A stretch of 64,000 bases of DNA from Vulcanimicrobiota bacterium (GTDB taxonomy: Bacteria; Vulcanimicrobiota; Vulcanimicrobiia; Eremiobacterales; Eremiobacteraceae), in assembly GCA_963805945.1 (NCBI GenBank), contig CAWDVP010000001.1:96001-160000 (forward strand). Direction: 5' to 3'. Of this stretch, positions 38,642 to 40,151 are shown one piece after another. The notes under the pieces were generated by a model. It ran no database searches, was not told the DNA's origin, and saw nothing but the letters and a program-made list of their open reading frames with translations. Every line of letters begins with the position of its first letter. Within the stretch, counting starts at the first letter, position 1. The position numbers and the translations under genes were made by a program.

Positions 38642-38919
38642 CATGTTGCTTCCACCATTACTGGTGGCATAGACTATATCTTCATCCTGACTTGCGATCA
38701 GGAGTCGGCGTGTTATGGCGGCCGTAAATTTGTCGCATTGCTGCGACAGTGACCATCCATCTCAGAGCTTGCGCTCTTCAGTCGTTACAGGGTCAAGGCG
38801 CTCTGTAGCGCCCGACTTCCCTCGGTATTGCCCTGCTGGCGTTCGGAGCCAGCGTGGGGTTTCACCGATATAGCCGATGTGCATCCTCCAATTACTCGGA
38901 GGAGACGCAGTGTAATTCT
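38642..38919 (-). ncRNA. Group I intron at 23S position 2593, no homing endonuclease ORF
   Basis: Interrupts AGAACGU|CGUGAGAC; exon ends in U, intron ends in G; core elements GACUG and AAGAUAUAGUC. Confidence 0.93.
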
Positions 38920-39012
38920 ACGTTCTGAACCCAGATCGCGTACCGCTTTAATTGGCGAACAGCCAAACCCTTGGGACCTACTACAGCCCCAGGATGCGAC
39001 GATCCGACATCG

Positions 39013-39295
39013 CGCAGTCATCCATCATTCCTGATGGTGCAGACTATATCTTCACCTTGCGCGATCATTCGCGCGAAGGGCTGGCGTATTATGGCGGCCG
39101 TAGATTTGATCGCTTGCGCGATCAGACACACCATCTCGAGCTTGCGCTCTCAGTCGTTACGGGGTCAAGGCGCATCGCGCGCCCGACTTCCCACGGTATT
39201 GTCCTCGTCTTCAGTCCTAAGACGATCGGAGTTCACCGTTATTAGCCAGTACTCTATTGGTAGGCGGTGTTTCCACCACCTCACCCCTAATGTTG
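39013..39295 (-). ncRNA. Group I intron at 23S position 2500, no homing endonuclease ORF
   Basis: Interrupts GGCACCU|CGAUGUC; P1 CACCU/GGGUG, P10 ACAUU/GAUGU, terminal G, AAGAUAUAGUC. Confidence 0.93.
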
Positions 39296-39865
39296 AGGTG
39301 CCAAACCTCCCCGTCGATGTGGACTCTTGGGGGAGATAAGCCTGTTATCCCCGGGGTAGCTTTTATCCGTTAAGCGATGGCTCTTCCATACAAAACCACC
39401 GGATCACTTAGCCCGACTTTCGTCCCTGCTCGACATGTACGTCTCGCAGTTAAGCCGACTTCTGCCTATGCACTCTTACGGTTGATTTCCGACCAACCTG
39501 AGTCGACCTTTGGGCGCCTCCGTTACTCTTTGGGAGGCGACCGCCCCAGTCAAACTGCCCGCCTGACCATGTCCTCCGGCCGGATCACGGCCGCTAGTTA
39601 GATTCCCGAAACCGACAGAGTGGTATCTCAAGGATGGCTCCATCGCGCCCGAAGACACGACATCGCAGCCTCCCACCTATCCTGCGCAGTCAATTTCAAA
39701 AATCAAGATCAGGGTACAGTAAAGCTCCACGGGGTCTTTCCGTCCTGCTGCGGGTAACGGGCATCTTCACCCGTATTGCAACTTCGCCGAGCCCCCCATT
39801 GAGACAGTGCCCAAGTCGTTACGCCATTCGTGCAGGTCGGAACTTACCCGACAAGGAATTTCGCT

Positions 39866-40151
39866 CAGTTTTGTTACGACCGTCGTCCGTTAGAGACGCC
39901 GGCGGACTCGTCATTTCTGCGGATCTCCGTGCATCGCTGCACGGCTCGGACTATATCATCATCCGCGCGTGAACGCGGAGTCCGGCATGTAGTCTCTGAG
40001 GGGAACCGTCGTGAGATGGATCTTCCCTGCTGATCGTCCGCACCGATCGAATTGTCACGCGCGGTGAAGCGCGTATCGTCGGATGCTCGGATGTTCCAGC
40101 ATATAGCCAGATGCACACACGATCTTACGATCGTGGTGGGCAATCGATATC
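39866..40151 (-). ncRNA. Group I intron at 23S position 1931, no homing endonuclease ORF
   Basis: Interrupts CUAAGGU|AGCGAAAU; CAGAGACUA and GAUAUAGUCC core, terminal G. Confidence 0.93.

Follow-up and report, generated by a model that had tools for sequence, protein, structure and literature searches.

Three small endonuclease-free group I introns in a 23S rRNA gene of the bacterial phylum Eremiobacterota

Bacterial 23S rRNA genes with several introns, rRNA introns that lack an open reading frame (ORF), introns at E. coli positions 1931, 2500 and 2593, and an intron at 1931 in the bacterial phylum WPS-2 have all been published. Here we describe a 64 kb stretch of DNA (contig CAWDVP010000001.1; hereafter the window) in which the single ribosomal RNA (rrn) operon has a 23S rRNA gene with insertions at all three of these sites (L1931, L2500 and L2593, named by the E. 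coli base that they follow). We consider it very probable that the insertions are genuine group I introns of a member of Eremiobacterota, that L2500 and L2593 are paralogous and IA3-like while L1931 is IB4-like by analogy, that all three would be removed by standard splicing, and that they are endonuclease-free derivatives.

Three group I introns in one bacterial 23S rRNA gene were described in Synechococcus sp. C9, at L1917, L1931 and L2593, all with LAGLIDADG genes (Haugen et al., 2007, PMC1995217; this and the other papers are cited for the parts of their text that were available). Synechococcus sp. C9 and S. lividus C1 resemble the window in having three introns in one 23S gene and in sharing L1931 and L2593, and the cyanobacterial L2593 introns also have a short P5, a short P2 and a P7.1/P7.2 of ~65 nucleotides (nt). 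In contrast to the window, the five cyanobacterial introns are 666–748 nt long with full-length LAGLIDADG genes, the third site is L1917 and not L2500, and the hosts belong to another phylum (PMC1995217). In bacteria of the Candidate Phyla Radiation (CPR), hundreds of 23S group I introns are known, 222 of them ORF-less, and they cluster around the peptidyl-transferase centre at sites that include 1931 and 2593; at a given site, introns with and without an ORF closely resemble each other apart from the ORF itself, and several sites were called 'not reported in any known bacteria', with sites 23IS9-11 given without numbers in the main text (PMC11270868, J Bacteriol 2024). The window host is not a CPR bacterium; the ribozyme-core pattern of its introns matches many CPR loci. 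In archaea, IA3 introns are found at LSU/2593 and LSU/2500 and IB4 introns at LSU/1931 (LSU, large subunit), some of them ~300 nt long and some sharing one gene (Nawrocki, Jones and Eddy, 2018, PMC6125680); those hosts are archaeal, and our IA3 and IB4 labels are given by architecture and analogy. In the chloroplast rrl gene of Floydiella terrestris there are eight introns in total, including small ORF-less ones at 1931 and 2500, although the genome is organellar and the L2500 intron there is assigned to subgroup IB (PMC2997540).

Closest by host is the WPS-2 genome CARN1, which is of the same phylum as the window and has an intron between 1931 and 1932; however, that intron is 707 nt long and encodes a LAGLIDADG endonuclease, and it is the one intron reported in the text available (Camanocha and Dewhirst, 2014, PMC4192840). 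The question whether introns of this kind occur in further WPS-2 members was raised in that paper. Our literature search, which left most subscription journals outside its scope, found nothing on rRNA introns across Eremiobacterota beyond that 2014 report, and no paper that pairs 'L2500' with 'group I intron'. Neither the kind of element nor the sites are new, and the understanding of what group I introns are is unchanged; what is new, in a modest sense, is the host phylum, the lack of an endonuclease gene in all three introns, and a widespread L2500 intron accompanied by differing intron sets in close relatives. A further non-CPR host is reportedly Coxiella burnetii, whose 23S rRNA gene, by the title of a 2007 paper of Raghavan et al., has a pair of self-splicing group I introns flanking a 34-bp exon; the sites are reportedly L1917 and L1951. 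For Coxiella, the table of Haugen et al. lists only L1951 (PMC1995217).

Sites, boundaries and predicted structures of the three introns

We mapped the insertions by pairwise MAFFT alignment of the window 23S rRNA gene (38340..42251, minus strand, 3912 nt including the introns; RF02541 2555.2 bits, model positions 1-2925) to E. coli K-12 rrlB (L001 2642-5545), to which it is 71.4% identical over 2880 aligned columns. All three introns are on the minus strand and contain no ORF: L1931 lies at 39866..40151 (286 nt, after E. coli 1931), L2500 at 39013..39295 (283 nt, after 2500, final G at 39013) and L2593 at 38642..38919 (278 nt, after 2593, final G at 38642); 93 nt of exon separate L2500 from L2593. 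In each case the final exon base is T (U in the RNA) and the final intron base is G; at 2500, where alignment alone allows the boundary to slide by one base, this U...G rule selects 2500. The original prediction, which was made from the letters of the window, had placed insertions of about 278, 283 and 286 nt after U2593, U2500 and U1931, each following an exon U and ending in G, and our alignment agrees with it to the base.

The minus strand of the window has three copies of the motif GATATAGTC, one in each intron, and the plus strand has none. Each copy is preceded by GACT(A/G), so that the predicted core is present once in each intron, with GACU(A/G) paired to UAGUC as P7. The other hallmarks of group I introns are also present: the exon U in a P1 U-G wobble, a terminal omega-G, a core from P3 to P9 with a P3/P7 pseudoknot, and the guanosine-binding helix P7. 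We rechecked the P1 and P7 coordinates of all three introns against the sequence. In E-value mode, a search of a 4 kb region with RF00028 matches all three introns over the full model, L1931 with 59.4 bits (E 9.6e-14), L2593 with 41.3 bits (E 2.5e-8) and L2500 with 32.9 bits (E 8.5e-6). The Rfam gathering mode (curated cut-off 50 bits) yielded only L1931, and we therefore examined the other two introns by covariation. With the boundaries, P1 wobbles, terminal G and covariation described below, these matches bear out the predicted group I identity.

The L1931 intron has no P7.1/P7.2 extension and is of a type distinct from L2500 and L2593. By analogy with published introns at its site we call it IB4-like, an uncertain label, as IB4 is listed at LSU/1931 (PMC6125680) and the cyanobacterial L1931 introns are termed IC1-like (PMC1995217). 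In its P1 (40139..40154, minus strand), exon GGU and intron GAU (40154-40149) pair with the internal guide AUUGCC (40144-40139) and present a U-G wobble at the splice site. Its P7 (39949..39994, minus strand) is formed by GACUA (39994-39990) and UAGUC (39953-39949) and encloses the P3 3' strand and P8. In an alignment of nine L1931 homologues, RNAalifold finds 49 pairs, 32 of which have changes on both sides, and these include P3, P4, P5, P6, P8 and P9.

The L2500 and L2593 introns have the same base at 172 of 269 positions in their alignment. Between P3 and P9 they are near-identical, with paired differences in P3, P4, P7.2a, P8 and P9, and P1 and P2 are unrelated, as one would expect of guides that have to fit different exons. 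To judge from their sequences, the two introns are paralogues of one ribozyme family. We call them IA3-like from architecture and analogy, since a P7.1/P7.2 extension lies between P7 and the P3 3' strand in both.

In the L2500 intron, P1 (39282..39300, minus strand) pairs exon CACCU plus intron C (39300-39295) with the guide GGGGUG (39287-39282). The predicted P10 partner CAUU (39292-39289, minus strand) makes four pairs, with 87.7% of cells paired across homologues, and CPR homologues have a perfect five-pair P10 when read from the alignment. The P2 hairpin (39263..39280, minus strand) has a covarying stem and a GAAA loop whose bases G31, A32, A33 and A34 are invariant in 21/21 homologues, and P9 ends in a GNRA-type loop throughout the aligned sequences of the L2500 family; GNRA-type loops commonly form tertiary contacts. 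P7 (39042..39155, minus strand) pairs GACUG (39155-39151) with UAGUC (39046-39042) and encloses P7.1/P7.2 (39150-39091), the P3 3' strand and P8. By itself, RNAalifold recovered P1, P2, P4, P5, P6 and P9 of the L2500 family from a 28-sequence alignment. On MAFFT alignments of this family it missed P3, P7, P7.1, P7.2 and P8, and its pairing of J6/7 to the 3' exon was judged spurious. For these reasons we used a structure drawn by hand on the window sequence (P7.1 on L122) and mapped to the columns of an alignment of 21 homologues with 8-nt exon flanks; the elements drawn were P1, P2, P3, P4, P5, P5a, P6/6a/6b, P7 (as a pseudoknot), P7.2, P7.2a, P8, P9 and P10.

With this structure, we found standard pairing in 95.7% of 1822 cells, as compared to 31.9-44.9% when the 3' partners are slid by 1-3 columns. 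Changes on both sides have occurred at 45 of the 89 pairs, and 0/500 shuffles reach the observed values. All six P1 pairs, including the U-G wobble at the splice site, are retained in 21/21 sequences. Pairing reaches 97.1% in P7, 97.6% in P7.2, 94.8% in P8 and 94.6% in P7.1, where the last value counts the window row without its 5' strand, as MAFFT did not align the short window hairpin (GAGC/GCUC with a GCAA loop, read from the sequence) to the longer ones.

In the L2593 intron, P1 (38905..38923, minus strand) pairs exon ACGU plus intron AG (38923-38918) with the guide CUGCGU (38910-38905), and 6/6 pairs are retained in 5/5 sequences, again with the U-G wobble at the splice site. P7 (38672..38783, minus strand) pairs GACUG (38783-38779) with UAGUC (38676-38672) and encloses P7.1/P7.2 (38777-38715), the P3 3' strand and P8. 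The hand-drawn structure is 99.0% paired in five homologues, all from Eremiobacterota, as compared to 34-42% with slid partners, and 11 of 79 pairs have changed on both sides. Most of the differences between the window L2593 intron and its relatives are paired changes in P5a, P6b and P8; the core is unchanged.

From this anatomy we infer the standard group I pathway. The internal guide would pair with the last exon bases, so that P1 presents the U-G wobble at the 5' splice site, and an exogenous guanosine held in P7 would attack that site. The terminal G would then replace the guanosine in P7, and with P10 holding or aligning the 3' exon, the exons would be ligated.

Distribution in relatives and endonuclease genes

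The window 16S rRNA is 98.7% identical to that of L022 (a Candidatus Eremiobacteraeota metagenome-assembled genome, MAG), 95.3% to L074 and 95.0% to L034. A 23S exon tree (E. coli 1960-2884) places the window inside a 14-row Eremiobacterota clade with a Shimodaira-Hasegawa-like approximate likelihood ratio test (SH-aLRT) value of 99; within it, subclade A consists of the window, L022, L046, L074, L034 and L076, and subclade B has eight rows. The window genes around the operon are ordinary chromosomal ones (fumarase C, a RecN-like SMC protein, NAD kinase and a class A penicillin-binding protein). From these three lines of evidence, the host is a non-CPR bacterium of Eremiobacterota (WPS-2, Vulcanimicrobiota).

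We scanned GTDB representative genomes with a shared-core pattern, GTAACGACTG, 82-112 nt, GAAGATATAGTC, and found at least 123 loci in public genomes, by record title mostly CPR (Patescibacteria). Among the matches listed are 19 from Eremiobacteraeota/Vulcanimicrobiota, 11 from Pseudomonadota, 5 from Actinomycetota, 3 from Acidobacteriota, 2 from Chloroflexota and single loci from several further phyla; the window's own genome is not among the at least 123 matches listed. The original prediction had called such introns uncommon, and this count, along with the three-intron 23S gene published in 2007 and the 222 ORF-less CPR introns of 2024, shows that it overrated their rarity. Sites were assigned by pairwise alignment to E. 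coli, keeping only boundaries of the form U, intron, G at recurrent sites, and the L2500 intron of L102 was added by hand. Global alignment misplaced insertions in several multi-intron CPR genes, which are under-described as a result. The sample is biased, as every locus was found through an intron of this family, and the distributions that follow hold among the matches listed.

In Eremiobacterota, including the window, an L2500 intron (282-334 nt) is present in 21 of 23 loci that cover the site, an L1931 intron (284-360 nt) in 7 of 13 and an L2593 intron (278-287 nt) in 5 of 23. All 21 L2500 introns are ORF-less. Of the five L2593 introns, four belong to loci of subclade A and one to L102, which lies outside the sampling of the exon tree. 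L074 has the same three introns as the window (1931, 2500 and 2593), L034, L014, L054 and L045 have 1931 and 2500, and L076 has 1917, 1931 and 2500, with a 755-nt L1917 intron that contains a LAGLIDADG_1 ORF. The closest relatives, L022 and L046, whose 23S exons are 97.7% and 97.9% identical to those of the window, are the only two of the 23 loci without an L2500 intron. They also have none at 1931; instead, small ORF-less introns with verified junctions are present at 1951 (315 nt), 2473 (292-294 nt) and 2593 (in L022 at 4612-4926, 5450-5743 and 5864-6149, and likewise in L046). Their L1951 and L2473 introns bear the same GTAACGACT...GTATAGTCT core. RF00028 at E <= 0.01 matches only the L2593 intron of L022 (28.8 bits) and misses those at 1951 and 2473, which we assigned to the family because of their core motifs and tree position. 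Site 2473 is absent from the published site lists that we examined.

Near relatives thus have different sets of introns. Small rRNA introns that lack an endonuclease occur beyond the CPR bacteria and are common in Eremiobacterota, and annotation of 23S genes, primers and probes for this phylum must allow for them. Three of these loci have titles that disagree with their sequences: L034 and L074 are titled 'uncultured proteobacterium' and L079 'Candidatus Acidoferrum', but all three group within Eremiobacterota by their 23S exons, and L034 and L074 by their 16S as well. Probably they are mislabelled, or their rRNA contigs are mis-binned.

We next consider coding capacity. The longest stop-free stretches in any frame of the window introns are 91, 94 and 60 amino acids (aa), in agreement with the prediction that none has room for a homing endonuclease. 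Six-frame translation of the 64 kb window gave 699 segments of at least 50 aa, among which LAGLIDADG profiles built from intron proteins of relatives had 0 matches (best E 0.21 and 1.3); positive controls worked in two loci outside the training set. Within the window, the introns do persist without mobility genes of their own, as had been claimed. In relatives, introns of at least 430 nt at recurrent sites contain 27 sense-strand ORFs of at least 90 aa among the matches listed. All 21 of those submitted to Pfam are LAGLIDADG; the six left out are at sites 2584, 2511, 2262 and 2449 (two), plus one nested 94-aa ORF. The ORFs of long L2500 introns have LAGLIDADG_2 in 6/6 tested, those of long L2593 introns have LAGLIDADG_1 in four and LAGLIDADG_2 in one, and the single L1931 ORF tested has LAGLIDADG_1. 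The LAGLIDADG ORFs of these longer relatives are 142-231 aa long. The window introns thus belong to families that elsewhere have LAGLIDADG genes at these sites, and they represent the form that lacks an endonuclease.

Two further multi-intron genes were seen among the relatives. In L018 (Coxiella endosymbiont of Ornithodoros amblus), the 23S gene has inserts at 1169 (431 nt), 1917 (670), 1931 (287, with a final base A by alignment) and 2500 (832). The last of these is a member of the L2500 family without an ORF of at least 90 aa, yet one segment matches the LAGLIDADG_2 profile (E 7.2e-10), which suggests a decayed endonuclease gene. In L016, an Acidobacteriota MAG, the 23S gene has six inserts, at 1923, 1951, 2262, ~2508, 2593 and 2656, four of them with Pfam-confirmed LAGLIDADG ORFs; multi-intron 23S genes are not limited to CPR bacteria.

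A minority possibility, which we take seriously, is that splicing in vivo occurs only with a helper encoded outside the window, either a maturase-type LAGLIDADG protein or a host RNA chaperone, and such a helper could also explain the spread of the introns. The Thermotoga L1931 LAGLIDADG protein has maturase-like activity and StpA-type host proteins aid phage introns (PMC3984707), L076 of the same subclade carries the LAGLIDADG_1 ORF mentioned above, and the window is 64 kb of a genome. However, none of the 699 window segments is LAGLIDADG-like, the introns have complete cores and a stabilising periphery (P2, P9 GNRA loops and P7.1/P7.2), and all 21 L2500 introns from Eremiobacterota lack ORFs.

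Intron history

We built trees from the last 250 nt of family members, one with 51 rows and one with 62. The L2500 introns of subclade A form a clade (99/98) nested among other Eremiobacterota L2500 introns, and the L2593 introns of Eremiobacterota form a clade (100/100) on a long stem. As to whether the latter arose from the local L2500 intron, they are nearer to a group of L2500-type introns from Eremiobacterota, Actinomycetota and Acidobacteriota than to CPR L2593 introns, with weak support (39/79, 82/90; 86/77). The L1951 intron of L022 pairs with an ORF-bearing L1951 intron of an Acidobacteriota MAG (99/97), and its L2473 intron clusters with an L2593 intron that contains an ORF, from an Acidimicrobiia MAG (98/96). 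On the 51-row tree, site labels require 9 changes as compared to a minimum of 6, and site-by-host labels require 21 on the 62-row tree as compared to 14; as these exceed the minimum, the intron family has changed sites. One ribozyme family at many 23S sites bears on how introns persist and move.

In approximately unbiased (AU) tests, a single clade of the 21 Eremiobacterota L2500 introns (p = 0.445) and a single clade of subclade B introns (p = 0.45) are not rejected, and placing all L2593 introns in one clade gives a borderline result (p = 0.050). The L2500 result is compatible with long vertical descent of this intron in the phylum. Leaving the L2593 copy aside, we read other introns as arrivals by homing from elsewhere that subsequently lost their endonuclease gene. 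The introns match the 23S gene in G+C (0.54-0.57 and 0.55, respectively), which fits long residence. Separately, the L2500 intron of a contig labelled Verrucomicrobiia (L044:5973-6232), whose 23S exons are outside the Eremiobacterota clade, stands beside that of Eremiobacterota L106 in the 51-row tree (95/97), and the 62-row tree leaves its placement unsettled; this could be inter-phylum transfer or a chimeric contig.

A more far-reaching history, which we regard as unlikely, is that L2500 is an ancient, vertically inherited resident of the peptidyl-transferase centre in all of Eremiobacterota, maintained without homing since guanosine-dependent splicing became a step of 50S biogenesis (for example a checkpoint on folding or the level of GTP), with a single rrn operon probable, and that the same lineage colonised 2593, 2473 and 1951 without an endonuclease of its own, for example by reverse splicing. 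The AU result for one L2500 clade and the absence of ORFs from all 21 copies are compatible with it. However, in the closest relatives the introns at 1951 and 2473 cluster with introns from other phyla that encode endonucleases, a pattern that speaks for ordinary homing with subsequent loss of the gene.

Splicing, ribosome maturation and the surrounding operon

The sites 1931, 2500 and 2593 are in domains IV and V of 23S rRNA, and U2500 is part of the peptidyl-transferase centre. Since all three sites are at or near this centre, an uninterrupted functional 23S rRNA requires three removals, and it is a reasonable inference from sequence that ribosome maturation through this operon would need three splicing events. 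For the phylum's sole cultured member, three rRNA genes, i.e. one operon, have been reported, and the word 'intron' is absent from the available text of that report (PMC9758169). If the window host likewise has one rrn operon, every ribosome would depend on three ribozyme reactions, and the locus would be a natural case for how splicing fits into bacterial 50S assembly.

Several points weigh against the overall reading. Splicing is read here from sequence anatomy, and an intron-free rrn copy could be present elsewhere in the genome, of which 64 kb were examined. Two of the three introns, L2593 and L2500, score under the RF00028 cut-off and only L1931 passes, although the low scores arise because RF00028 misaligns P1/P2 and takes the ~60-nt P7.1/P7.2 extension as an insertion. 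The L1931 P1 has only three pairs with the exon, as read from the sequence, and the L2593 P10 has three pairs by reading, of which two were counted, at 100%. The L2500 and L2593 structures were drawn on the window sequence, which is itself counted, and this favours them in the slid control. Vertical inheritance of L2500 is 'not rejected' by the AU test, in a sample whose search pattern requires this intron family. Finally, the L2500 intron of L074 (L074:6351-6650, minus strand) reads GTGATATAGATGCC where others read GAAGATATAGTCTG, so that the P7 3' strand (TAGTC) is unrecognisable there; the intron may be decaying, or assembly or polishing may have introduced an error, and not every copy need be intact.

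In a very unlikely alternative, the inserts are group I introns by descent that no longer self-splice, and are either retained in mature 23S rRNA or cut out by host nucleases and left unligated, which would give a fragmented 23S as with bacterial intervening sequences. A paper on the Simkania L1931 intron is titled 'An unspliced group I intron in 23S rRNA...' (cited for its title alone), and the CPR study mentions 23S rRNA that is left in fragments once RNase III has removed intervening sequences (PMC11270868). However, the core pairing, guides and terminal G have been kept by compensatory change in 21, 9 and 5 homologues, as selection for ribozyme activity predicts. On general grounds, a retained 283-nt insert at U2500 is also hard to square with an active ribosome. 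That the inserts are assembly chimeras or the operon a dead copy we can practically dismiss: the window is probably metagenome-assembled and rRNA regions are prone to misassembly, but homologous introns are found at identical positions in many independent assemblies, several of them complete chromosomes, and the exons are intact (2555 bits, full LSU model) among ordinary chromosomal genes.

An Rfam scan finds one rrn operon in the window, on the minus strand, in which the 23S gene is accompanied by the 16S rRNA gene at 42753..44279 (minus strand, RF00177 1576.4 bits) and the 5S rRNA gene at 38084..38201 (minus strand, RF00001 95.4 bits). We looked for a tRNA gene in the 16S-23S spacer (window 42252-42752, ~500 nt) and found none. 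ARAGORN calls a 96-nt tRNA-Arg(CCG) at window 11364-11459, within the fumarase C gene (10911-12122, minus strand). That gene has the domains Lyase_1 (1.1e-84) and FumaraseC_C (8.1e-21), and the tRNA call is most likely false.

Compared with E. coli, the window 23S gene also has smaller insertions of 10-52 nt near positions 278-302, 553, 1398-1415 and 1500, which are not introns. Those at window 41869-41971 comprise 13, 34 and 32 nt inserted after E. coli positions 278, 286 and 302, and those at window 40676-40756 comprise 12 and 52 nt after 1398 and 1415. Relatives from subclade B have 169-190 nt inserted near 1398-1416. These smaller insertions may be expansion segments or intervening sequences.

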